DNA of 64,000 bases from contig DUCU01000066.1 in NCBI GenBank assembly GCA_012959605.1, positions 15,319-79,318 on the forward strand, written 5' to 3'. A program made the position numbers and the translations under genes. Within the stretch, counting starts at the first letter, position 1; every line of letters begins with the position of its first letter. The stretch is from Dehalococcoidia bacterium. GTDB lineage: Bacteria; Chloroflexota; Dehalococcoidia; Lucifugimonadales; UBA3495. The notes beneath the pieces were generated by a model that did no database searches, was not told the DNA's origin, and worked only from the letters and a program-made list of their open reading frames with translations. Shown piece after piece: positions 1-29,235 of this stretch.

Positions 1-726
1 GAAGCTGAGATGATCAGCGGTGACCTAAACATCGTTGACGTACAGATGGTGGTCCAGTACGACATTAAAAACGTCGTAGATTTCCTGTTCAATGTCTCGG
101 ACCCAGGCGAAATTGACCGTGGCATCGACATAGGCAGTCCTGACGGGAGGACATTAAAAGACGCCTCAGAAGCGGCTCTTCGTCTGGTCATCGGCCAGAG
201 GACCATTGACGATGTGCTGACCGCCAGACGTGAAGAGGTGCAGGCGGCCACCAAACAGCTTTTGCAGACAATCCTAGACAGCTATCAATCTGGTATCAAC
301 GTGACCAACGTGCAGCTGCAGGACGTAAAAGCACCGGAAGAAGTACGCGACGCATTTGATGACGTGCTCCGGGCGCGCCAAGAACGTGACACCAGAATCA
401 ACCAGGCCAGGGCGTATGAGAATGACATCATACCCAGGGCTAGTGGTAACGCAGAAAGGATCAAGAGAGAAGCAGAGGCATTCGCCCAGTCCAGGGTTGC
501 CAGGGCAGAGGGTGAAGCTGAAGGATTCACTTCGATTTTGGGAGAATACAATCGATCCACACTGTCACAAAACGTTACCAGGCAACGGTTATATCTAGAG
601 GCAATGGAAGAGATTCTTCCTGGCATCGCCAAGATAATCGTCTCGCCAGACGCAGAATCCGTGCTGGTACTGGGCGATTCCGGCGGACGGATTCCATTGC
701 CCATCGGCCCCAGCCCCCAGCCGTAG
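1..726 (+). CDS. hflK: HflK-like SPFH/band-7 protein, 5'-partial (runs off window start)
   Basis: Frame 1 is open from base 1. The translation (NIVDVQMVVQYDIKN...RARQERDTRINQARAYENDIIPRASGNAERIKREAEAFAQSRVARAEGEAEGF) is typical of the HflK SPFH domain plus C-terminal coiled coil. It is followed by an hflC-like gene. Confidence 0.8.
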   Translation, partial: EAEMISGDLNIVDVQMVVQYDIKNVVDFLFNVSDPGEIDRGIDIGSPDGRTLKDASEAALRLVIGQRTIDDVLTARREEVQAATKQLLQTILDSYQSGINVTNVQLQDVKAPEEVRDAFDDVLRARQERDTRINQARAYENDIIPRASGNAERIKREAEAFAQSRVARAEGEAEGFTSILGEYNRSTLSQNVTRQRLYLEAMEEILPGIAKIIVSPDAESVLVLGDSGGRIPLPIGPSPQP

Positions 727-794
727 CCCCGCCGTAGCCCAATAAAAAAGACACCATTTCGATTGAATCCAATTTCGCACGAGAATTAAATTAA

Positions 795-19028: not shown

Positions 19029-20429
19029 ATGCAATGGCCTCCCAAATACCCCGATAACTATCGCCCAGATTCGGATCAGGAATACTGGTCTCCTGAACTG
19101 GAGACTATGCCGACTGCCGAACGGGACCAACACATTCTGGCCAAGCTGCAATCCCAGGTGCGTTACGCCTACCAGAACTCCGGCTTCTACAAAGAATTCT
19201 ACAAAGATCTGCCCGTAGACCCGGCCAACCTCCAGAGCTTGGAAGAATTTGAGCAGTTGCCGATCCTCACAAAAGAAAACATCCGCCACGAACAGGAACA
19301 ACACCCACCCTACGGACGGTTCCTCTGCGTGACTCCAGAAGAGATTTTTCGCATTCACGGCACTTCGGGCACCACCGGACGCCCCACCGTGTTCGGCATC
19401 AGCAATGACGACTGGGATCGCATTGGCGAGGCCCATGCCCGTATCCTCTGGGGCGCAGGACTCAGAAAAGACGACACAGTGATGGTAGCCGCTGTCTTCA
19501 GCCTGTACGTGGGTAGCTGGGGTGCCTTGGTCGGCGCAGAACGGTTGGGGGCTACCTGCTTTCCCTTTGGCAGCGGCGCGCCTGGGCAGACGGAGCGTGC
19601 CGTTGAGTGGTGCAAAATGGTAAAGCCATCAGCCCTCTATGCCACGCCGTCTTATGCCCTCTATCTAGCCGAGACCGCAAGGCAGATGGGGTTCGACCCC
19701 AAAGAAGACTTTGGCTTTAGGTTCATGTTCTTCTCGGGCGAGCCTGGGGCCAGCGTACCGGCCACCCGACGCCTAATTGAAGAAACCTTTGGTTGCTATA
19801 TAGTCGACCAGGGCAGCATGGCCGAGATGACACCCTGGATGAGCAACTCGGGCTGCCGCCATCTGGACGGAGGAATGCACCTGTGGCAAGACATTGTCTA
19901 CACGGAGATGGTCGACCCTCAGACCAAGTTGAACCTGGCAATGGGCGAGGAGGGAGTACCGGTCTATTCCCACACAGAACGGACCTCACAGCCGATGATT
20001 CGCTATTGGTCAGGAGACATTGCCCGGTGGGACATGGTGGACTGCCCATGCGGCCGCACCTACCCAACTCTGGTCACCGGCATCTACGGAAGAGTCGATG
20101 ACATGATCATAGTTCGAGGCCAGAACGTGTTCCCATCACGCATCGAAGACGTGCTCCGGAGCATGGACGAATTTGGCGGAGAGTTCCGCTTGGTGCTGGA
20201 ACGGGAGACCGGACAGATGGACCGGCTAACCGTGCAGGCAGAAGTGGTTGCTGAAGCCTACGCCTCCCAGGAGTTCAACCCGACGGAGTTGGAGCAGATA
20301 CGAGAACGGTTCACCGCAGAGCTACGCCGCGCCATTGGCGTCAGCGTTACCGTGCAACTGAAGCCTGCTGGTGAGTTTGAGCGGACCCAGTTCAAAGCCC
20401 GCCGCATCATCGACCTGCGCACTCCCTAA
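19029..20429 (+). CDS. PaaK-type (phenylacetate-CoA ligase family) acyl-CoA ligase
   Basis: 466 aa with HGTSGTTGRPTVF (P-loop-like AMP motif), FSGEPG and GRVDDMIIVRGQNVFP, typical of the PaaK/F390-synthetase clade. Confidence 0.8.
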   Translation: MQWPPKYPDNYRPDSDQEYWSPELETMPTAERDQHILAKLQSQVRYAYQNSGFYKEFYKDLPVDPANLQSLEEFEQLPILTKENIRHEQEQHPPYGRFLCVTPEEIFRIHGTSGTTGRPTVFGISNDDWDRIGEAHARILWGAGLRKDDTVMVAAVFSLYVGSWGALVGAERLGATCFPFGSGAPGQTERAVEWCKMVKPSALYATPSYALYLAETARQMGFDPKEDFGFRFMFFSGEPGASVPATRRLIEETFGCYIVDQGSMAEMTPWMSNSGCRHLDGGMHLWQDIVYTEMVDPQTKLNLAMGEEGVPVYSHTERTSQPMIRYWSGDIARWDMVDCPCGRTYPTLVTGIYGRVDDMIIVRGQNVFPSRIEDVLRSMDEFGGEFRLVLERETGQMDRLTVQAEVVAEAYASQEFNPTELEQIRERFTAELRRAIGVSVTVQLKPAGEFERTQFKARRIIDLRTP

Positions 20430-20463
20430 TACCCTTTTCTAGATTCAGAACAGGGGCGAGAAA

Positions 20464-21642
20464 ATGACATCCAGAAGGCCATCATTCAGCACATTGGACC
20501 ACTCACTGGGCGAGACAATCGACTTGATTCGAGACACGGTGCGTCAGTTCTCAACTCAGGAGATTGCCCCACGGGCTGATGAGATAGACCAGACTGACCA
20601 ATTCCCCAGAGACCTTTGGCCCAGGCTCGGCGACTTGGGTCTGCTGGGCATGACGGTCTCCGAGGAATACGGCGGCGCCGGACTTGGCTACCTGGCACAT
20701 ACCATCACTGTGGAAGAGATTTCTCGGGGCTCGGCTAGCGTTGGCCTCAGCTACGGTGCCCACTCCAATTTGTGCGTCAACCAGATATCCCGTAACGGCA
20801 ACGACGACCAGAAGCGACGCTACCTGCCCAAGTTGATCAGTGGGGAGCACGTGGGCGCGTTGGCTATGAGCGATCCTGATGCCGGTTCCGATGTAGTGAG
20901 CATGACGCTCAGGGCCGATAAGAAGGGCGACCACTACATCTTGAACGGCACCAAGATGTGGATTACCAACGGCCCCGACGCCGATACCCTGGTAATCTAC
21001 GGCAAGACTAACCCCAAAGCAGGCTCCCACGGCATTACCGCGTTTTTGGTGGAGAAAAGGTTTGCGGGATTTGCAGCTTCTCCCAAGCTGAACAAGCTGG
21101 GCATGCGCGGCTCCAGCACGTCAGAGTTGGTCTTTCACGATTGTGAAGTGCCTGAGGAGAACGTGCTTGGCGAGGTTGATCACGGCGTCCAGGTGCTGAT
21201 GAGCGGATTGGATTACGAACGGCTGGTCCTGGCCGGCGGCCCCCTGGGCATCATGCAATCTTGTTTGGACGTGGTGGTGCCTTATGTCCACCAGCGTGAA
21301 CAGTTCGGCCAGCCAATCGGCGAGTTTCAATTGATCCAGGCGAAACTGGCCGATATGTACACCGCCCTATCGGCTTGCCAGTCATACACCTACGCAGTGG
21401 CCCGCGCTGCCGACCAAGGGCAGAGCATACGCAAAGACGCCGCTGGGTGTCTGCTGTTCACTGCCGAGCATGCCACCCAAATGGCGCTCCAGGCAGTGCA
21501 AACATTGGGCGGGAACGGCTACATCAACGACTCGCCAACCGGCCGACTGCTGCGAGACGCCAAGCTCTACGAGATTGGCGCCGGCACCAGCGAGATACGC
21601 CGGATACTCATTGGCCGGGAGCTCTTCCGAGAGTCTGCGTAG
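20464..21642 (+). CDS. isovaleryl-CoA dehydrogenase-like acyl-CoA dehydrogenase
   Basis: 392 aa with [69 protein letters not shown], close to recalled IVD sequences. Confidence 0.8.
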
Positions 21643-21703: not shown

Positions 21704-22303
21704 ATGCTTTCGTCGGTGAGCGTTTGTGAATCTAATACCCCCATTCGACTCCTCAGGCGGTTATGGCTAGCTGTTGTGCTGCTGACCGTAATGTTGGCTG
21801 CCTGTTCTTCCGGCGACAGCTCACCAACTCTTGAACCGGAGACTGCTGCCGATAACACACCTGTTGCCAACTCTTCAGATGCCATGAACGGCGAATTGGA
21901 GCTGGAGGGCGACTCGGTGTATTTCGTCTACCGCAATCATGCAAACAGCATGTTCCCGGTGTCACAGCGCAATTCTGACCTGACCACCAAGTATCAGGTA
22001 TTTCGGTTGGCTTTGGATGGTGAGGCAAGGGCTTAGCCACTTGCCTTGTTTGAAGATCACGTCCCGGTCAACGATATTTTAACTGGCCAGGACGTGGTAA
22101 TCGTCCCAGATTCGTCAGGCAGCGGTGTCCGGGCCTATGACCGAAGCGACCATGTATTCGCAATATCGAGTTCTTCCAGCGAATCAGCAGTGATACTCAA
22201 TGACGAGAATGGGGCCGACTGGCTAGCTGAGACCGATAGCCTGGTCCGATTCTACGATACCAGCCAGACGTTAGAGAGGCTGCCCAGTCACTGGTTCGGT
22301 TGA
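21704..22303 (+). pseudogene. DUF3179-like secreted lipoprotein gene with two premature stops
   Basis: ORFs 21704..22036 and 22046..22303 are in the same frame, separated only by TAG 22034..22036. This gives GEARA-TAG-PLALFEDHVPVNDILTG, where recalled family members have AYPL. TGA 22301..22303 interrupts HWFG-TGA-YVFTPTQT, where the family has the WFAW..F.P.T tail. The N-terminus has the lipobox LAAC. Confidence 0.45.
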
Positions 22304-22420
22304 TACGTTTTTACCCCCACACAGACATCTACACCTCTTAACTCCAGTTCTGCGTCCCTTCCTCCGGCCCTATTTGGTGCACGATTCATCTGGTATCCCG
22401 TCTTCTTATTAATTGTATTA

Positions 22421-22450
22421 GTTTAAAATTAATTTTAAACTATATATAAT
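22421..22450 (+). promoter_or_regulatory. perfect 20-bp palindrome GTTTAAAATTAATTTTAAAC overlapping a candidate promoter (TTTAAA-17-TATAAT)
   Basis: The palindrome at 22421..22440 was verified base by base. TATAAT lies at 22445..22450. Both sit in a local AT-rich island about 170 nt upstream of the repeat-protein gene. Confidence 0.45.
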
Positions 22451-22624
22451 TTTCTAGACTGAAAGTGGGTAGTTTAGATATTGGCCAACGAGTTTGGCCC
22501 ATAACCCACGCCCACAAAACTGGGTCCATCGAGTTTTACCTGAGAATTTCACCTGAGATTTCCAAGGGAACCAAGACCCTGGCGTCCGTGTCGCAGAATT
22601 GCGACCAAGTGAGGGAGGATGGGA

Positions 22625-25501
22625 ATGCGGTATTCGATATTGCGGCTGCCAATCACACTAATGTTACTGGCTCTGGTTGTGGTGGCCTTCTTCGCCAATC
22701 AATCAAATCTTCATGCGGAAGACGATCACGGTGATTACCGTTTCACTTCCACCAACCTGAGTATTGGTGCTGGGGCTGTTTCTGGCGTCATCAATACCGC
22801 CGACATCCTGTTTGATGTGGACTATTTCTCTTTCCAGGCAAAGAGGGGCGTTCGATACACCTTCCTTTTGGACGAAGTCACGGTGGTTGACGCCAATATT
22901 TCAATAATTAACTCCCTGTCACGCGGCAACAACAGTTCCCCTGAGCAGGAACTTACGGTTTCGGGCGGTCAAAAGACTGTCGACTGGATTGCCAGGACCA
23001 CTGATACCTACTACGTGGAAGTCGCCGGGACTATCAACGCGTTTGACGGTTCTTTCTACCTGGGTGACTACACCATCAGCGGATTTGAAGATACCAGCCT
23101 GCTGGATCGGCACTCCGACGAGCGCAACGGCGCAACCAGTATCTCCCCAGGAAACGTTTACCAGGGTGCGGTTAGTCCTTGGAGTAACCAGCCCAGCCTA
23201 GCCAGCACCGTTGACGGCGGAGACGACTTCGATTTCTATTCGTTCCAAGCCCAACGTGGCGTGAAATACAACGTTGAGGTCGACCTAGCCACATCTGAAG
23301 GAGTTGAGATAGCCATCCACACCACTTTTGCCGGCATCGAGAAGACCAGCGACGGCATTGGCAGCACGCTGAGTTGGATATCTCCAAACAACGACACGTA
23401 TTACGTGTCTGTATCCGGAACGAGTCGGGTGCGCGATTCCAATGGCACCTACGCCATCAAGCTGAATGCCGAGACCGACCTTCTCGACCACCACACAGAT
23501 TCCGTGACCGGAGCAACCGTAGTCAGCTTTGGCAATGCCCACCAGGGCTCGATTAGCCCGGCCAATGACCTAGATTACTTCTCCTTCCCCGCCCTGCGCG
23601 GCGTTAAATACATGATGGAAGCATCTCTAGGCAGCGCTGACGGTGTTAATCTCACCATAATCGACGCTGACCAAACCAGCCTGGCTTCCAATGGCGGTGT
23701 GGGCACCAGTCTAGAGTGGCTGGCTCCTGCCAATGGCACTTTTCTAGCGATAGTCTCAGCCTCGCCCCAGGTCCCCAATGTTATTGGAACCTATTCTTTA
23801 AACCTGAGCAGCGATACCACCCTACAGGACCACCACGGTGATTCCACTGGGGCGGCATCTGTCCTCAGCTTTGGCAACGCTCATCAGGGTGCGGTCAGCC
23901 CCAATACCGACCGAGACTACTTCATGTTCCCGGCAGAACGAGGGGTCAACTACACATTGGAGTTGGACCTGCTGACCGCCGACGGTGCAGTCATATCCAT
24001 AGAGAACCCCGCAGGAGACACACTGAGCAGCACCAACGGCCTGGGCACTGGTCTAGGTTGGACGGCGGCCAGTACCGGCTTGTTCTACGTGGTGGTGTCC
24101 CATTCACCCCAGGCAAATGAGGGCATCGGCACTTACGCGTTAACAGTCTCAGCCAACACCAGCTTGGAAGACCGTCACTTGGACACGGCTTCAAGTGGCA
24201 CTCCTCTGAGTTTTGGCACTATCTATCAGGGAGCGATCAGCCCCCAGTCTGACTTGGATTATTTCTCATTCCCCGCTGAGCGCGGAGTTGAATATCTGCT
24301 GGACATGACTTATGGGTCAGCAACGGCAGTTTCATTTGAAGTAAGCAGTTTGGACGGGAGTTCAGATAGCGGCGCTCGTAACTTCGGAGAGAGCAACATT
24401 ATCCGATGGACGTCTCCGGACTCGGGCACCTATTACGTCAGGGTTTCAGCCTCGGCAAAAGCACTGGAACCAACAGGTACGTACACACTGAAGGTCACGC
24501 CTGATCTGGCACTGCAAGATCGGCATAGCGACGCTGCCAGCAATGGCACTCGCATCGGATTTGGCAACGCCATCAGAGGCGCCATCAGCCCGTTAACCGA
24601 CTATGACTATTTCGAGTTCACCGCAGAGCAGGGAATCACCTACACCGTAGATGTGAGACCTGAAACCGCCGAAGGCGTCCGGTTCTCAGTTGAGAGCCAA
24701 ATAGTAGGTTTCTCCATTTCCAACTTCGGCCTGGAACAATCTCTGGAGTGGGAGGCCCCAACATCGGGGGCATACATACTCGCCGTATCGGCCTCCGAAC
24801 GAGTGGGCAAGTCCGTTGGCACTTATTCCATCACCGTCAACCGACAAAGTGACGCGCGACCTGAGGTACCCAAGGTAATCGAACCGGATCCAGAACCGGT
24901 GCCAGATATACCCCTACCCAAGATCATCGCCCCAGACGGGACCGCAATGATCCTTGAGTCCAGGGTTTCACCGTTGGGGAGCATTGTCCGGGTTCCGGTG
25001 GAACTGAGCCAAGCGTCGGGTATCACCAGTCTTGGGTTCACGCTGAACTACGACCCCAACGCACTCCGAGTGTTCAACGTAGAACGGGGTTCCAGACTAA
25101 CTGAGGACTCATTCAGCTATGACAATGATTTACCGGGACAGGTGCGGTTTGGATTTGCCGTGACTCAGGGTTCAGAATCCAGTGGTACTGCGGCCGTTGT
25201 GTCCTTCCAGGTAGTAGGGGCTGAGGGTTCAGTTAGCCCAATCACCCTATCAGACGCCTTGGTAAATCACCGAGCCGAGGGTCCTTTGACTGTGGAACTG
25301 GTTGGAGCTGACTTCAGAGTCGGTTCCAAGATACTGGGCGACGCCGATGGCGACAGTCTAGTTACAGCGCTGGACGCTTTGCTGGCCCTGAAGATGGCCG
25401 CAGGCGGCACCAGGATAGACCTTTCCTTGGACGTCAACAATGACGGCAAGATTACCATTGATGACGCCCGAATAATTCTGAACATGGCCCGACCTAGTTA
25501 G
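22625..25501 (+). CDS. secreted protein: signal peptide, 6 PPC-like repeats, Pro-rich linker, cohesin domain and dockerin domain
   Basis: The ORF runs 22619..25501. The GGAGG at 22614..22618 abuts ATG 22619, so ATG 22625 is the likelier start. The signal peptide is LRLPITLMLLALVVVAFFANQSNLHA. Domain details are in the separate entries below. Confidence 0.8.
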   Translation: MRYSILRLPITLMLLALVVVAFFANQSNLHAEDDHGDYRFTSTNLSIGAGAVSGVINTADILFDVDYFSFQAKRGVRYTFLLDEVTVVDANISIINSLSRGNNSSPEQELTVSGGQKTVDWIARTTDTYYVEVAGTINAFDGSFYLGDYTISGFEDTSLLDRHSDERNGATSISPGNVYQGAVSPWSNQPSLASTVDGGDDFDFYSFQAQRGVKYNVEVDLATSEGVEIAIHTTFAGIEKTSDGIGSTLSWISPNNDTYYVSVSGTSRVRDSNGTYAIKLNAETDLLDHHTDSVTGATVVSFGNAHQGSISPANDLDYFSFPALRGVKYMMEASLGSADGVNLTIIDADQTSLASNGGVGTSLEWLAPANGTFLAIVSASPQVPNVIGTYSLNLSSDTTLQDHHGDSTGAASVLSFGNAHQGAVSPNTDRDYFMFPAERGVNYTLELDLLTADGAVISIENPAGDTLSSTNGLGTGLGWTAASTGLFYVVVSHSPQANEGIGTYALTVSANTSLEDRHLDTASSGTPLSFGTIYQGAISPQSDLDYFSFPAERGVEYLLDMTYGSATAVSFEVSSLDGSSDSGARNFGESNIIRWTSPDSGTYYVRVSASAKALEPTGTYTLKVTPDLALQDRHSDAASNGTRIGFGNAIRGAISPLTDYDYFEFTAEQGITYTVDVRPETAEGVRFSVESQIVGFSISNFGLEQSLEWEAPTSGAYILAVSASERVGKSVGTYSITVNRQSDARPEVPKVIEPDPEPVPDIPLPKIIAPDGTAMILESRVSPLGSIVRVPVELSQASGITSLGFTLNYDPNALRVFNVERGSRLTEDSFSYDNDLPGQVRFGFAVTQGSESSGTAAVVSFQVVGAEGSVSPITLSDALVNHRAEGPLTVELVGADFRVGSKILGDADGDSLVTALDALLALKMAAGGTRIDLSLDVNNDGKITIDDARIILNMARPS
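22721..24844 (+). repeat. six tandem protein-level repeats of about 112-126 aa (pre-peptidase C-terminal/PPC-like)
   Basis: Each unit opens with D-(H/R)-H-x-D (DDHGD, DRHSD, DHHTD, DHHGD, DRHLD, DRHSD). Each then has G.A..(L/V)SFGN..QGA(I/V)SP..D.DYF.F.A.RGV.Y, then TYYV.VS, then GTY.L. The units are divergent at DNA level. Confidence 0.75.
24932..25318 (+). other. cohesin-like domain (approximate bounds)
   Basis: VRVPVELSQASGITSLGFTLNYDPNALRVFNVERGS...GQVRFGFAV...GTAAVVSFQVVGAEGSVSPITLS follows the recalled cohesin pattern (v.v.v..g.qf.l.YDp..l....v..G...i.F...G.G.la...F.v). Confidence 0.6.
25337..25489 (+). other. dockerin-like domain (two EF-hand-like Ca-binding segments)
   Basis: GDADGDSLVTALDALLALKMAAG and LDVNNDGKITIDDARIILNMA form a duplicated DxDxDG...D plus helix arrangement, typical of type-I dockerins. 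Confidence 0.65.
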
Positions 25502-25512
25502 GGGAGTAGATT

Positions 25513-26193
25513 ATGCGCTGGATGTTAGAAGTAGCATTTATCGGCTTATCCACCAGTTGGAAATGGTTGCTTGGCTCAACGGCCGCGGTCGCAATTCTGG
25601 TGGGATTATTGTTCGGAGTGGGAGTTTTGGGTGGCGGTGACAGTAGCGACACTGATCCTGGCGGGCCTTTTGTTGCCGCCCCGCCAACACCAAGTCCCGC
25701 TCCTAACGCGACACCAAGGCCCGCTCCTAAGGCGACACCAAGGCCAACTCAGGCGGTTGCTGCAACACCAGTGCCTTCGGCTACGCGGGTGCCCGCAGCG
25801 CCGGCCAAGGTGATCTCAGTGCCCATATTGGCCACCCGGGCCGCCAACGTCGGCAGCCTGGAGTTTGTCTTGGTCTACGACCCGGCCAAGCTGGAATTTG
25901 CCCAGGTTGAACGTGGCCTGTTGTCCGGTGATGCCTTGATCGACTCTAGTTCATCAGAGCCAGGCCGACTTTGGGCTGGCATCATCGATATGCAGGGGAT
26001 TAACGGTAGCGGCCCGGTGGCCGTGGTGAAATTTCGAGTGCGCGACGGTGTATCTGGGGCCATGCCTCTAAGTTTGGAGAGTATCGCGGCGTTTGATGCC
26101 AATACACTGGTCGACATTGTCACTGGGACCACAGATGGGGAGTTCAATGTCACAGAGCTCCATCCCCTGTCGCCCATAGTCACTTTCCAATAA
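25513..26193 (+). CDS. membrane-anchored cohesin-domain protein (TM helix, Pro/Thr linker, cohesin)
   Basis: 226 aa. GGGGAG lies 6 nt upstream, and the gene starts 11 nt after the upstream stop. It has a TM helix (AAVAILVGLLFGVGVLGG), a PT-rich linker and a cohesin-like VGSLEFVLVYDPAKLEFAQVERG..GPVAVVKFRVRDGVSGAMPLSL (about 25807..26151). Confidence 0.7.
   Translation: MRWMLEVAFIGLSTSWKWLLGSTAAVAILVGLLFGVGVLGGGDSSDTDPGGPFVAAPPTPSPAPNATPRPAPKATPRPTQAVAATPVPSATRVPAAPAKVISVPILATRAANVGSLEFVLVYDPAKLEFAQVERGLLSGDALIDSSSSEPGRLWAGIIDMQGINGSGPVAVVKFRVRDGVSGAMPLSLESIAAFDANTLVDIVTGTTDGEFNVTELHPLSPIVTFQ
25696..25743 (+). repeat. 24-nt tandem duplication in the linker (PAPNATPR/PAPKATPR)
   Basis: CCCGCTCCTAA(C/G)GCGACACCAAGG occurs twice back to back with one mismatch. 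Confidence 0.85.
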
Positions 26194-26347: not shown

Positions 26348-26764
26348 TTGGCTAGTTTGAACCTTGCGGAAGCTGAAGTGATTTTGGCGGCATCGAAGGC
26401 AAAAATGGTAGAGCTCGGCGTCAAGATGAGTATCTCAGTGGTTGACCCTCGTGGCGATCTGATTACCATGTGCAAGATGGATGGAGCACCTTGGCGAACA
26501 CCCGTGGTCTCCCGCGGTAAGGCAGTTGCCTCGGCCAGCTTTGAAGTTGCCAGCGGCGCTTTGACCGACAACTCCCAGGCTCCCATCTTCCGGGCTTTCA
26601 TGGCCATGGAAGGCGGACATTTCATCCCCGGTCAGGGCGCATTGCCCGTATTCCGCAACGGCGAGATCATCGGCGCAGTCGGTGGTAGCGGCGGAACAGC
26701 TCAAGAGGATGAAGACTGCGCTCGCGCCGGCATCGAAGCCGCTGGATTCTCAGCTTCTCGCTAA
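26348..26764 (+). CDS. GlcG/HbpS-like heme-binding protein (DUF336)
   Basis: 138 aa. It has a TTG start with GGAGG upstream, and ISVVDPRGDLI..DGAP..SRGKAVASASF..PG.GALPVFRNGEIIGAVGGSGGT..EDEDCA is the DUF336 signature. Confidence 0.75.
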   Translation: MASLNLAEAEVILAASKAKMVELGVKMSISVVDPRGDLITMCKMDGAPWRTPVVSRGKAVASASFEVASGALTDNSQAPIFRAFMAMEGGHFIPGQGALPVFRNGEIIGAVGGSGGTAQEDEDCARAGIEAAGFSASR

Positions 26765-26790
26765 CAAATAGTTTTCGATCTTTGGCATAA

Positions 26791-26826
26791 AAATAGGCTG
26801 GGTTAAACCCAGCCTATTTTTTATTT
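26791..26826 (+). terminator. intrinsic terminator after the glcG-like gene
   Basis: AAAATAGGCTGGG (26791..26803) pairs with CCCAGCCTATTTT (26808..26820), followed by TTATTT. Confidence 0.8.
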
Positions 26827-26984
26827 GTACCCGATTCATGCCCATTCGTTTCTGGTGGACGGCACGCTCGATTGAACTGTAGACTGATGCTCATAGCCTC
26901 TCCCCTTAACCAGTCTTAAATCGATACTGATGCCCAAAAGCGCTGGCCAAACGTTGTCTCAGACGAGGCCGCTGGAGTTAAATC

Positions 26985-28058
26985 ATGCACGTTGGATCGT
27001 CTACCTTTTTCCAGAACCACCGCCAGGCAATGACCGACTTGGAGATCTATCGGAACGAGCTGCGCCTGGCCGACATGGTTGAACCGTTGGGCTTCGACTC
27101 AATCTGGGGGGTGGAACACCATTTCACCGACTACACCATGTGCCCAGACGTTCTGCAGTTTCTTTCCTACATGGCCGGACGAACCCAAACGGTGCAACTA
27201 GGTAGCATGGTGGTGGTTCTGCCCTGGCACGACCCGCTTAGGGTAGCTGAGCAATTCTCCGTGCTTGACCATCTTAGCGCCGGAAGGGCGATAATCGGCG
27301 TTGGCCGGGGTCTGGCCAGAGTTGAATTTGATGGATTCAAGATAGAGATGTCAGAGTCCAGGGCCAGGTTCGCGGAGAGCACCAAGTTATTGGTTGATGC
27401 CCTTGAAGAGGGCTTCGCCGAGTTCCAGGGTGAACTGATCAAACAGCCTAGGGTGGAAATCAGGCCCAGACCCTACAAGAGTTTCAAGGGCCGGACTTAC
27501 GCTGCCGCAGTCTCTCCGGAATCTTCGTTGGCGCTGGCCCAATTGGGCCTCGGCATGTTGATCATCCCCCAGAAGCCGTGGAGCGAGGTTGAAGCCGAAC
27601 TCAAGTCCTACCGAGAGATCTACCAGGAGATCAATGGCGAGCCAGCACCGCCTCCGATAGTGGTCGGGTTCACGTTCTGTCACGAAGACGAAGAAACGGC
27701 CCGAGAGATGGCCAGCGAGTATATCGGCAATTACTGGGACTCGATAATGGACCACTACGAGTTCCACAGTGACCACCTGAAAGAGACCAAGGGCTACGAG
27801 TACTACGGCAAGTTCACCGAGAAGATAGAACAATACGGAAACCAGGACGTGAAGGACTTCTTTCTGGACCTGCAGGTATGGGGAACTCCCGACCAGTGCT
27901 ACGAAAAGATCATGAAAACTCGAGGCCGTACCGGAAGCGAATCATACATAGGCGCGTTTAGTTTTGGCGGAATGCCCTACGGTGAGGTTGAAAAGAGCAT
28001 GAAACTCTTCGCCGAAAAGGTGATGCCCAGGCTGAAAGGAGTACTGGCTGCGGTGTAA
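26985..28058 (+). CDS. LLM-class (luciferase-like) flavin-dependent monooxygenase
   Basis: 357 aa with GFDSIWGVEHHF, LDHLSAGRAIIGVGRG and an overall bacterial-luciferase TIM-barrel pattern. Confidence 0.8.
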   Translation: MHVGSSTFFQNHRQAMTDLEIYRNELRLADMVEPLGFDSIWGVEHHFTDYTMCPDVLQFLSYMAGRTQTVQLGSMVVVLPWHDPLRVAEQFSVLDHLSAGRAIIGVGRGLARVEFDGFKIEMSESRARFAESTKLLVDALEEGFAEFQGELIKQPRVEIRPRPYKSFKGRTYAAAVSPESSLALAQLGLGMLIIPQKPWSEVEAELKSYREIYQEINGEPAPPPIVVGFTFCHEDEETAREMASEYIGNYWDSIMDHYEFHSDHLKETKGYEYYGKFTEKIEQYGNQDVKDFFLDLQVWGTPDQCYEKIMKTRGRTGSESYIGAFSFGGMPYGEVEKSMKLFAEKVMPRLKGVLAAV

Positions 28059-28059
28059 C

Positions 28060-29235
28060 CTATTCGCCCGTGTAGCGAATTTCCTCGCTTTTTAACTCAC
28101 CCAGCGAACGCCATGCAAAACGTTTGGTGTAAGGATTCTCGATTCCTTCCAAAGCATCTGCAGCCAGTCCGCCCAGCACCGGGCCAAACTTAAAAGCGTG
28201 GCCGCTGCCGCCGGTGGAGACCACCAAGCCCTGCCGGGCAGGGTCTCGGCCAATCCAGAAATCCCCATCCCAGGTGTCGCAGTAGAGGCACATTTTGCTG
28301 CCGTAAAGTGGGAGCGCCGCCAGAGAGGGCAGAGACTCGGCCAAGAACGCCCGGCAATGAGCTTCCTGCTCTGGTAGCGTCAATCTATCCGCGTCAGGGT
28401 GAACCCTGCGGCCTGGCCCATGGTTGGCCATCTTGACCACTCCCTCACAGTTGGCCGGGAATCCGTACCAGCCGGTTCGTGGGATGTCCGCGCCCCAAGG
28501 TGGAAATGATGGCGCGCGGTAGTTTTCCGGATTTGACGGCTTGAAGTAGAAGATGGGCTGTCCTACCGGCCACATCCGGTCGGCAAGGTCTGGTAGCAAA
28601 ACCGTAGTCCACACCCCGGCGGCCACCAACACCCACTCAGCCAGCAATTCCCGACCGTCTGATGCCGCTGCACCGGTTACTCGATCACCATTCTGTACCA
28701 ACCGAGTCGCTGCGAAGCCAGTCACGATTGAAACACCAGAATCGATTGCGTCGTGGGCCAGGGCAGCAGTAATTTCGGCAGCTGCCGCCCAACCTGCCCT
28801 TGGGTTGAAGTACCCGTCTATGTAGTGGTCTGCGTTCCAATGAGGGTAACGACTGGCCAGGTCTCCGGCTAGTAGCTTTTCAATGGGGAAGCCACGCTCA
28901 GTCAGGAGCGAGTACGAGTCCTGCTCAAACGACCCAGAAGCCATCGGCACGCTGGTCATGAGCAGAAACCCGTCTTCGTGGTAAAGGTCTCTGCCCCAAC
29001 GGGCGTTCCAGCGGTGCCAACCTTCAATGGCCTCAGCGCCCAACGACGAATAAAGGCCATCGGCACCGTAGTCCAGGCGCACCATGCGGCTGACGTCGTT
29101 GGATGCCGCCAGTGGATGAGGAACCGGCCCCGGATCCGCCACCGTGACTCGGTAGCCGCGTTGCCGCAATTCCAAGGCGGCGGTCAGCCCAAATATGCCA
29201 GCCCCAATCACCAGTACTGAGTTGTCAGCAAGCAC
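28060..29235 (-). CDS. FAD-dependent oxidoreductase (DAO/sarcosine-oxidase-like family)
   Basis: 391 aa with VLVIGAGIFGLTAALELRQRGYRVTVAD (dinucleotide-binding fold) and a C-terminal GGSGHAFKFGPVLG. Confidence 0.75.
   Translation of the reverse strand: MLADNSVLVIGAGIFGLTAALELRQRGYRVTVADPGPVPHPLAASNDVSRMVRLDYGADGLYSSLGAEAIEGWHRWNARWGRDLYHEDGFLLMTSVPMASGSFEQDSYSLLTERGFPIEKLLAGDLASRYPHWNADHYIDGYFNPRAGWAAAAEITAALAHDAIDSGVSIVTGFAATRLVQNGDRVTGAAASDGRELLAEWVLVAAGVWTTVLLPDLADRMWPVGQPIFYFKPSNPENYRAPSFPPWGADIPRTGWYGFPANCEGVVKMANHGPGRRVHPDADRLTLPEQEAHCRAFLAESLPSLAALPLYGSKMCLYCDTWDGDFWIGRDPARQGLVVSTGGSGHAFKFGPVLGGLAADALEGIENPYTKRFAWRSLGELKSEEIRYTGE

Follow-up and report, generated by a model that had tools for sequence, protein, structure and literature searches.

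A cohesin/dockerin gene pair as a candidate membrane-tethered surface-display cassette in SAR202 Dehalococcoidia

Introduction

How could a bacterium without peptidoglycan hold a large secreted protein on its surface? This question is raised by two adjacent genes in a stretch of 64,000 nucleotides from a Dehalococcoidia bacterium (GenBank assembly GCA_012959605.1, contig DUCU01000066.1, positions 15,319 to 79,318 of the forward strand), which is called the window below. Gene 1 encodes a secreted protein composed of six repeats, a cohesin and a C-terminal dockerin, and gene 2 encodes a small protein composed of a transmembrane (TM) helix, a stalk and a single cohesin. An earlier note, made from the sequence of this DNA, proposed that the dockerin of gene 1 plugs into the cohesin of gene 2 and that the cohesin of gene 1 could join further copies into chains.

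In the canonical cellulosome, a scaffold bearing a dockerin is attached non-covalently to a cohesin bound to the cell (PMC9012536). Cohesins and dockerins are also widespread outside cellulosomes; archaeal ones bind, and anaerobic methanotrophic (ANME) archaea have many of them, including S-layer-linked ones (PMC9012536). SAR202 bacteria are monoderm, have no genes for peptidoglycan synthesis and show an additional S-layer-like surface layer by transmission electron microscopy (PMC10444878).

Here we examined the domains of the two genes, their conservation and their occurrence elsewhere. The best explanation is that they form a bicistronic, self-contained surface-display cassette. Taking the evidence as a whole, it is probable that the membrane-tethered cohesin of gene 2 holds the secreted gene 1 protein by its dockerin.

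Results

A dockerin protein and a membrane-anchored cohesin encoded side by side

Both open reading frames (ORFs) were found exactly where the earlier note had placed them, 11 nucleotides apart (Table 1). The order of their parts was also confirmed: a signal peptide, six repeats, a Pro-rich linker, a cohesin and a dockerin in gene 1, and in gene 2 a TM helix, then a P/T-rich stalk, then a cohesin. The Pfam cohesin family was recognised well above its cut-off in both genes. No terminator was found between the two genes, and gene 2 has its own ribosome-binding site (GGGGAG, 7 nucleotides upstream). The ribosome-binding site of gene 1, GGGAGG, directly abuts the first ATG (22619). This makes the second ATG (22625) the more probable start, so gene 1 probably encodes 958 residues, and gene callers made the same choice.

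The N-terminus of gene 1 has a hydrophobic segment (residues 7-25, Kyte-Doolittle score 2.56), for which AlphaFold gave a helix of low confidence at residues 5-24, and the A-x-A-like LHA site suggests where the signal peptide would be cleaved. At the other end, beyond a flexible linker, which is predicted to be disordered and is the least conserved segment of the protein (37% mean pairwise identity), lie the tail cohesin (cohesin 1) and the dockerin, joined by approximately six residues. The closest solved relative of cohesin 1 is 2xdh, a non-cellulosomal cohesin of Archaeoglobus fulgidus (phmmer E = 4.6e-8, approximately 29% identity). Comparison with Foldseek gave template modelling scores of 0.80-0.82 against 2xdh, with a root-mean-square deviation of 2.7-2.8 Å, and of 0.7-0.8 against type I cohesins; in the model, cohesin 1 is a nine-stranded β-sandwich that can be superposed on solved cohesins. 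In its sequence and in the AlphaFold model, the dockerin shows a duplicated segment in which an EF-hand-like loop (D-x-[DN]-x-D…D at position 12) leads into a helix; the helices are predicted at residues 915-925 and 945-954. Both Ca2+ loops are kept in every full-length homologue.

Gene 2 begins with an amphipathic Trp-rich segment and the TM helix, and its basic N-terminus suggests an N-in/C-out topology. Neither an S-layer homology (SLH) domain nor an LPXTG signal was found in gene 2 by Pfam or in its sequence; it has the N-terminal TM helix instead. Judging from these features, gene 2 appears to work like an anchoring scaffoldin, but outside the SLH and sortase classes. Its cohesin (cohesin 2, the anchor cohesin) is a paralogue of cohesin 1 (E ~1e-10), and its best match in the PDB by sequence comparison is also 2xdh (E = 7e-7), besides 1g1k and 2vn5. 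We found 348 homologues of gene 2, all of which have PF00963 and are approximately 200-240 residues long. The architecture of amphipathic segment, TM helix, variable stalk, cohesin and C-terminal motif is conserved, the stalk differing in both length and sequence among orthologues. The C-terminal extension with its P-x-[IV]-x-F motif occurs in the SAR202 anchors and in most anchors of the unrelated cassettes described below, and is absent in tail cohesins. NCBIfam matches of gene 2 to GltJ, SslE and BimA were rejected, as they reflect low-complexity P/T-rich sequence and lie far below the cut-offs.

The earlier note had regarded the module as lacking a glycoside hydrolase. This was borne out by scans of the pair with Pfam and NCBIfam, which gave no catalytic domain, no glycoside hydrolase and no carbohydrate-binding module (CBM) in either gene; with NCBIfam, nothing scored above threshold.

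The two genes stay together within SAR202

At least 157 homologues of gene 1 were found. All the named ones come from metagenome-assembled genomes (MAGs) assigned to Chloroflexi, the SAR202 cluster or Dehalococcoidia, and their only annotations are 'hypothetical' or 'cohesin domain-containing protein'. No record of the exact gene 1 sequence was found; a near-identical contig (JAPOGO010001011.1 in GCA_029935895.1) was reached via gene 2. In each of the 14 distinct family loci that could be read, down to 34% identity, gene 1 is immediately followed by a gene 2 homologue, and the pair is kept in two loci (L001 and L002) despite entirely different neighbours. The TM helix of gene 2 is present in all 15 pairs compared.

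All full-length members of the family end in a two-loop dockerin. Their arrays contain 5, 6, 7, 8 or 9 repeats (6, 78, 22, 12 and 3 proteins, respectively), with approximately two residues between repeats. Mean identity among orthologues is 52-60% for the repeats, 50% for the cohesin and 58% for the dockerin. Because this puts the repeats on a par with the cohesin and the dockerin in conservation, the array is not a hypervariable spacer and each repeat position is distinct.

Two members of the family deserve separate mention. In the Dehalococcoidia MAG NORP26 (L010, 8871-9559), the gene 2 homologue occurs as two overlapping ORFs, which may be due to a frameshift, a sequencing error or a pseudogene. 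A pair with 48% identity (L012, NYZZ01000038.1) is binned as 'Methanobacteriota archaeon ARS43'; since every other member of the family is from Chloroflexota, this is probably a mis-binned SAR202 contig.

The tail and its anchor recur with other cargo

A profile of the cohesin-dockerin tail was searched against 1.84 billion representative proteins, clustered at 50% identity; with a threshold of E ≤ 1e-30 it gave 394 clusters. Of the top 150 matches, most are one continuous stretch from cohesin to dockerin, in proteins of 190-1965 residues, and the tail is at the extreme C-terminus in 212 of the 233 full tails. The cargo in front of it is unrelated from protein to protein: three Laminin_G_3 domains, CBM96, FecR, CarboxypepD_reg, a combination of phospholipase C, PKD, GDSL-lipase and CARDB, or PPC. 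Hosts outside the SAR202 family include Dehalococcoidales and Dehalococcoidia (two named), one gammaproteobacterial MAG and one MAG of a Hecatellales archaeon. A further search with a Dehalococcoidales tail gave 21 matches, mostly fragments, and no taxonomic gain.

A small gene encoding only a cohesin adjoins the tail gene in all eight non-family loci examined; at two of them (L022 and L078) one cohesin gene is flanked by two tail proteins. These partners are always membrane-tethered, by an N-terminal TM helix, a lipobox Cys, a C-terminal TM helix with a Zn-ribbon, or a C-terminal region with several TM helices. Neighbour-joining (no bootstrap) separated tail from anchor cohesins as two clades, and the sub-groupings of one mirror those of the other. 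This mirroring suggests that the cassette is old and has been inherited as a unit while its cargo was exchanged. The claim that the dockerin of gene 1 docks onto the cohesin of gene 2 is thus strongly supported by comparative genomics: the partner is there in all 14 family loci, and a tethered one in all 8 unrelated cassettes.

The repeats share the fold of collagenase collagen-binding domains

The six repeats are 112-126 residues long and 26-49% identical in pairs. Each has D-x-H-x-D at its start and D-x-D-[YF]-F-x-F within. In the AlphaFold model of gene 1 (mean predicted local distance difference test, pLDDT, 84.4), they form six all-β domains at approximately 90. The mature protein is rich in S, G, A and T and has an isoelectric point of 4.3, and Cys is lacking across the family. 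N-glycosylation sequons are not enriched in gene 1 (12 observed against 8.2±2.5 expected).

Against solved structures, the repeat profile matched the Ca2+-bound tandem ColG s3a-s3b domains (5iku, E = 1e-7) as well as 1nqd and 4hpk (5e-4; ColG s3b and ColH s3), and the Foldseek comparison of the repeats with 5iku gave E = 3.9e-8. The Pfam family PF04151 was matched by 24 of 49 repeats (best 1.8e-6). The window protein itself scores 18 bits against a PPC cut-off of 25.9, and single repeats alone are below it. By profile and fold, the repeats belong to the superfamily of PPC and collagenase collagen-binding domains. Collagen-binding domains are a subclass of PPC, and Ca2+ restructures their N-terminal inter-domain linker (PMC4356367).

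Conservation over 775 repeats is 99% for D7, 92% for H9, 83% for D/E11, 99% for D34 and D36, and 100% for Y48 and Y109; F38, F40, W84 and G107 are also near-invariant. The acidic-His motif is about as conserved as the D-x-D-Y-F core. Its six copies, in which the earlier note had seen a possible metal site, are all present (residues 35, 163, 290, 404, 518 and 634). Its form had to be amended, as the first copy reads DDHGD and the family-wide consensus is D-R-H-x-[DE]. In the alignment of hidden Markov models (HMMs), R-H-x-D falls on 'ENND' of ColG and D-x-D-Y-F on 'DSRDYY', positions that we take to be its dual-Ca2+ site. Since the motif lies over the N-terminal linker region that binds Ca2+ in the ColG domains, the idea of a metal site gains a basis in homology, and the metal at the repeat junctions would probably be Ca2+.

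The name of PF04151 raises another reading, namely that gene 1 is a secreted pro-protein or peptidase accessory with cleavable pre-peptidase C-terminal domains and not a surface structure, and many repeats do match this family. However, no peptidase or other catalytic domain occurs in gene 1, gene 2 or the family; the six to nine repeats are conserved position by position, and the protein ends in an anchoring tail. We regard this reading as effectively refuted. With no peptidase domain next to them, the repeats share the fold but not the function of collagenase-type collagen-binding or pre-peptidase domains.

Conservation in the gene 1 protein is highest in R1 and R2, which would lie farthest from the membrane, and for this reason they are a candidate for a functional tip. 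R2 carries a family-specific insertion (23174-23233) with the near-invariant residues S-P-W-x-N-Q-P…G-G-D-D-x-D-[YF]-F. Two database matches of gene 1 were rejected as spurious overlaps with the β-sandwich repeats. One is the Pfam family Flagellin_D3 (24.8 bits, cut-off 24.2), over 35 residues at the end of R2 (23375-23479, residues 253-287), which recurs in a few gene 1 homologues. The other is a sub-threshold match to Por_Secre_tail of the type IX secretion system.

Weighing the anchoring model and the role of the tail cohesin

Several observations weigh against the anchoring model as set out above. The dockerin of gene 1 scores 20.2 bits with PF00404 (residues 906-953), just below the cut-off of 22.9. 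The HMM search thus failed to recognise dockerin and PPC in the single protein, as the scores were below threshold, and both assignments were rescued by the Ca2+ loops, the predicted helices and the matches of the repeat profile. Many gene 1 orthologues have a precomputed PF00404 match, and related tails exceed the cut-off. As a Ca2+ ligand His is unusual, so that another ion or a purely structural His is possible. The positions aligned with the tyrosines of 'YKY' in ColG, presumably its collagen-binding residues, are Ser-x-Ser, and collagen binding by the repeats is therefore not expected. No covariation between cohesin and dockerin was detected by mean-field direct coupling analysis of 233 tails, an underpowered test with an effective number of sequences of 135. 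Finally, the tail cohesin is kept universally, yet simple anchoring does not account for it.

What, then, could the tail cohesin do? For the tail alone (191 residues), AlphaFold gave a pLDDT of 88.5 and a predicted template modelling score (pTM) of 0.81, with a pLDDT of 92-93 at the junction. The tail is thereby predicted to be one rigid unit, which suggests an intramolecular interface between its cohesin and its dockerin. The tail cohesin may accordingly be a partner of its own dockerin, either as a buttress like an X module during anchor binding or as a self-cap until handover to the anchor cohesin. X modules are β-sandwiches that directly precede dockerins and serve as structural buttresses in type II and III complexes; 4iu3 and 4u3s, which we take to be X-dockerin complexes, are among the Foldseek matches of the tail. 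In addition, cohesin and dockerin are always fused directly, with no linker. However, no solved chain covers the whole unit, Foldseek aligned the cohesin half only, and a buttress would not need a full cohesin fold. We hold such an intramolecular role to be quite possible, short of likely.

The chains suggested by the earlier note would form if the tail cohesin captured the dockerin of the next molecule, giving a backbone that starts from gene 2 and bears the PPC rods as side arms. A tail cohesin is found in every cassette and evolves under purifying selection, that of gene 1 has a bona fide type I-like fold, and the short junction may make it difficult for cohesin and dockerin to pair in cis through the canonical face. 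These points speak for a polymer, but the rigid single-chain unit with its confident junction implies an intramolecular interface, and the 1:1 operon with its own anchor in each cassette suggests a stoichiometric complex. Moreover, the two kinds of cohesin, tail and anchor, fall in separate clades and differ in their surface residues, and the coupling analysis gave no signal for a polymer either, within its low power. A polymer accounts for the rigid unit and the 1:1 operon no better than a buttress, a self-cap or a 1:1 complex would, and we consider chains unlikely.

One cohesin and one dockerin in the same chain are the architecture of ScaC-type proteins, which act as adaptors in Ruminococcus flavefaciens (PMC4081043). 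By analogy, gene 1 could be anchored by its dockerin and use its own cohesin to recruit other dockerin proteins of the genome, such as enzymes or binding proteins. ANME archaea bear dockerins on substrate-binding proteins (PMC9012536). Moreover, dockerin-only proteins occur in lineages related to the Dehalococcoidales cassette L074. These proteins (P0428-P0436) have approximately 260 residues and no cohesin, their dockerins are 64-85% identical to that of L074, and one of them carries CBM96; they could be clients of the tail or anchor cohesins in their lineages. However, no other ORF resembling a cohesin, a dockerin or the repeats was found within the 64-kb window, and the flanks of the 14 SAR202 family loci gave only the pair. 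An adaptor role of gene 1 is quite unlikely on this evidence.

Genomic surroundings of the pair

A DUF3179 gene has decayed just upstream of gene 1 (21704-22318), and two small ORFs (21704..22036 and 22046..22303) are what is left of it. In translation, window positions 21899-22318 align at 40% identity (E = 3e-26) with the second DUF3179 protein of L004, a syntenic locus, over its residues 92-235; the frame changes for the last residues. The window has nothing that corresponds to the first DUF3179 gene of L004.

The neighbours at 19029-21642 and 26348-29235 are catabolic genes of a kind typically seen in SAR202; they encode an AMP-binding CoA ligase, an acyl-CoA dehydrogenase, an HbpS-like protein, a luciferase-like monooxygenase and an FAD oxidoreductase. 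The region shows synteny with L004-L006 and none with L001 or L002, so these genes and the pair have no functional tie.

Table 1. Features of the gene pair, in window coordinates, and positions of the non-family cassettes in their own loci
Feature	Position	Strand	Details
Promoter-like site TTTAAA-17-TATAAT	22422..22450	+	Upstream of gene 1; consensus scan, 10/12 matches; pattern match only
Gene 1	22619..25501	+	ORF, 960 residues from first ATG; secreted, six repeats, cohesin, dockerin
Sec-type signal peptide	22619..22717	+	Predicted cleavage after ...NLHA; mature N-terminus EDDHGD
Six PPC/collagen-binding-domain-like β-sandwich repeats	22703..24835	+	Repeat HMM envelopes
Repeat bounds (960-residue numbering)	R1 29-154, R2 157-281, R3 284-395, R4 398-509, R5 512-625, R6 628-739		
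Pro/Glu-rich flexible linker (…RPEVPKVIEPDPEPVPDIPLP…)	24851..24925	+	pLDDT<50 at residues 743-767 (958-residue numbering)
Cohesin 1 (tail cohesin), type I-like	24944..25321	+	Pfam PF00963, residues 784-882, 51.1 bits (cut-off 24.1)
C-terminal dockerin	25334..25498	+	Two EF-hand-like Ca loops, DADGDSLVTALD and DVNNDGKITIDD; two helices
Gene 2	25513..26193	+	ORF, 226 residues; membrane-anchored single-cohesin protein
Amphipathic Trp-rich segment before TM helix	25513-25575	+	MRW.L.VAF.GL..SWKW; SAR202-shared form M-R/K-W-x-L-x-V-A…S-W-K-W
TM helix (signal anchor)	25576..25638	+	Kyte-Doolittle peak 2.23, residues 22-42
P/T/A-rich stalk	25639..25797	+	15 Pro, 11 Ala, 7 Thr in 53 residues
Cohesin 2 (anchor cohesin)	25798..26151	+	Pfam PF00963, residues 93-213, 42.1 bits (cut-off 24.1)
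Conserved C-terminal extension	26152..26190	+	Ends …L-S-P-I-V-T-F-Q; motif P-x-[IV]-x-F
Non-family cassette	L021 5644-7314		
Non-family cassette	L022 2398-9371		
Non-family cassette	L074 8001-11308		
Non-family cassette	L075 8001-10491		
Non-family cassette	L076 8001-14639		
Non-family cassette	L077 60-4506		
Non-family cassette	L078 1783-8009		
Non-family cassette	L079 2339-5008		

Discussion

According to the anchoring model, gene 2 would sit in the cytoplasmic membrane by its single N-terminal TM helix, and the P/T-rich stalk would keep its cohesin away from the membrane. The gene 1 protein would be exported by the Sec pathway and fold as a rod of six abutting β-sandwiches. From the homology to ColG, the inter-domain D-x-H-x-D and D-x-D sites may bind Ca2+ and stiffen the rod in seawater. 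After the flexible Pro-rich linker, the rigid tail would dock non-covalently by its dockerin onto the gene 2 cohesin. A membrane-tethered cohesin would then replace the SLH and sortase anchors of cellulosomes in SAR202, where such anchors are unavailable because there is no peptidoglycan. The rod is non-enzymatic and most likely serves either for binding or adhesion to a presumed physiological ligand or for the structure of the cell envelope.

Among known systems, CttA/ScaE and ScaC of R. flavefaciens come closest. The binding protein CttA is not an enzyme, and its C-terminal dockerin docks on the single-cohesin protein ScaE, encoded by an adjacent gene (PMC4081043). Likewise, gene 1 and gene 2 are adjacent and would give a non-enzymatic dockerin protein held on the cell by a single-cohesin anchor. 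However, sortase attaches ScaE to peptidoglycan, while the organism of gene 2 has no peptidoglycan and the protein uses a TM helix. CttA combines an X-module-dockerin with two cellulose-binding CBMs, whereas gene 1 carries six PPC-like repeats and a dockerin fused to a cohesin, and the pair has no cellulosome or glycoside hydrolase context. ScaC-type proteins resemble the tail of gene 1 in that a single cohesin is followed by a C-terminal dockerin in one chain (PMC4081043). They differ from it in three ways: the ScaC-like protein of R. albus has a linker between cohesin and dockerin where gene 1 has none, ScaC is bi-modular whereas the unit in gene 1 is the rigid tail of a large cargo protein, and the tail unit is always accompanied by its own membrane cohesin gene. 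The earlier claim that no described system matches the cassette was therefore too strong, as CttA/ScaE and ScaC are close functional analogues. It holds for the cassette itself: no description of it, or of cohesin/dockerin proteins in SAR202 or Dehalococcoidia, was found in the open-access literature.

Other relatives are more distant. As in canonical cellulosome anchoring by the type II dockerin of CipA and SLH scaffoldins, a dockerin protein would be held on a cell-bound cohesin. Here, however, there is one cohesin per protein, with no multi-cohesin scaffoldin, SLH domain or CBM and no dockerin enzymes nearby in the window. The closest solved relative of both cohesins, 2xdh, also comes from a non-cellulolytic organism, but the identity is only approximately 29% and the payload differs. 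We take the parent protein of 2xdh to carry a dockerin too, and the cohesin and dockerin modules of A. fulgidus reportedly bind each other. The ColG s3a-s3b domains (5iku) share with the repeats the fold, the tandem arrangement, and the acidic linker motif and D-x-D-aromatic at the Ca2+-site positions. In contrast to the two copies in ColG, the gene 1 family has six to nine, with a near-invariant His and no collagenase module. What sets the pair apart from the known systems is a membrane tether, a C-terminal tag in the form of a predicted rigid cohesin-dockerin unit, repeats with PPC-type putative Ca2+ sites, the lack of a carbohydrate-active context and the swapping of cargo.

A wider proposal can be made from the recurrence of the cassette. 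The tail and the membrane cohesin could be a general, unrecognised protein-sorting and anchoring system of wall-less Dehalococcoidia, found also in some archaea and Proteobacteria, and the SAR202 PPC rod could be the main building block of an S-layer-like coat, possibly daisy-chained. With an S-layer protein in mind, the gene 1 protein is acidic, Cys-free and secreted and has an anchor partner. We regard this proposal as very doubtful at present. If true, the general anchoring system would be a functional counterpart of SLH or sortase anchoring.

In conclusion, we found a conserved gene pair of SAR202 in which a dockerin protein is accompanied by a membrane-tethered cohesin. The data suggest that cohesin-dockerin pairing serves, with exchange of cargo, as modular surface display in hundreds of protein families that have nothing to do with the degradation of cellulose. 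If so, this would extend the known biology of cohesins and dockerins and would supply orthogonal pairs adapted to seawater. SAR202 ranks with the most abundant groups of bacteria in the dark ocean. A conserved surface protein with its anchor, apparently encoded at a single locus, is a concrete candidate for the SAR202 envelope or for attachment to particles or substrates. The pair is therefore a direct handle for antibodies, cryo-electron tomography and proteomics on cultured SAR202 strains.

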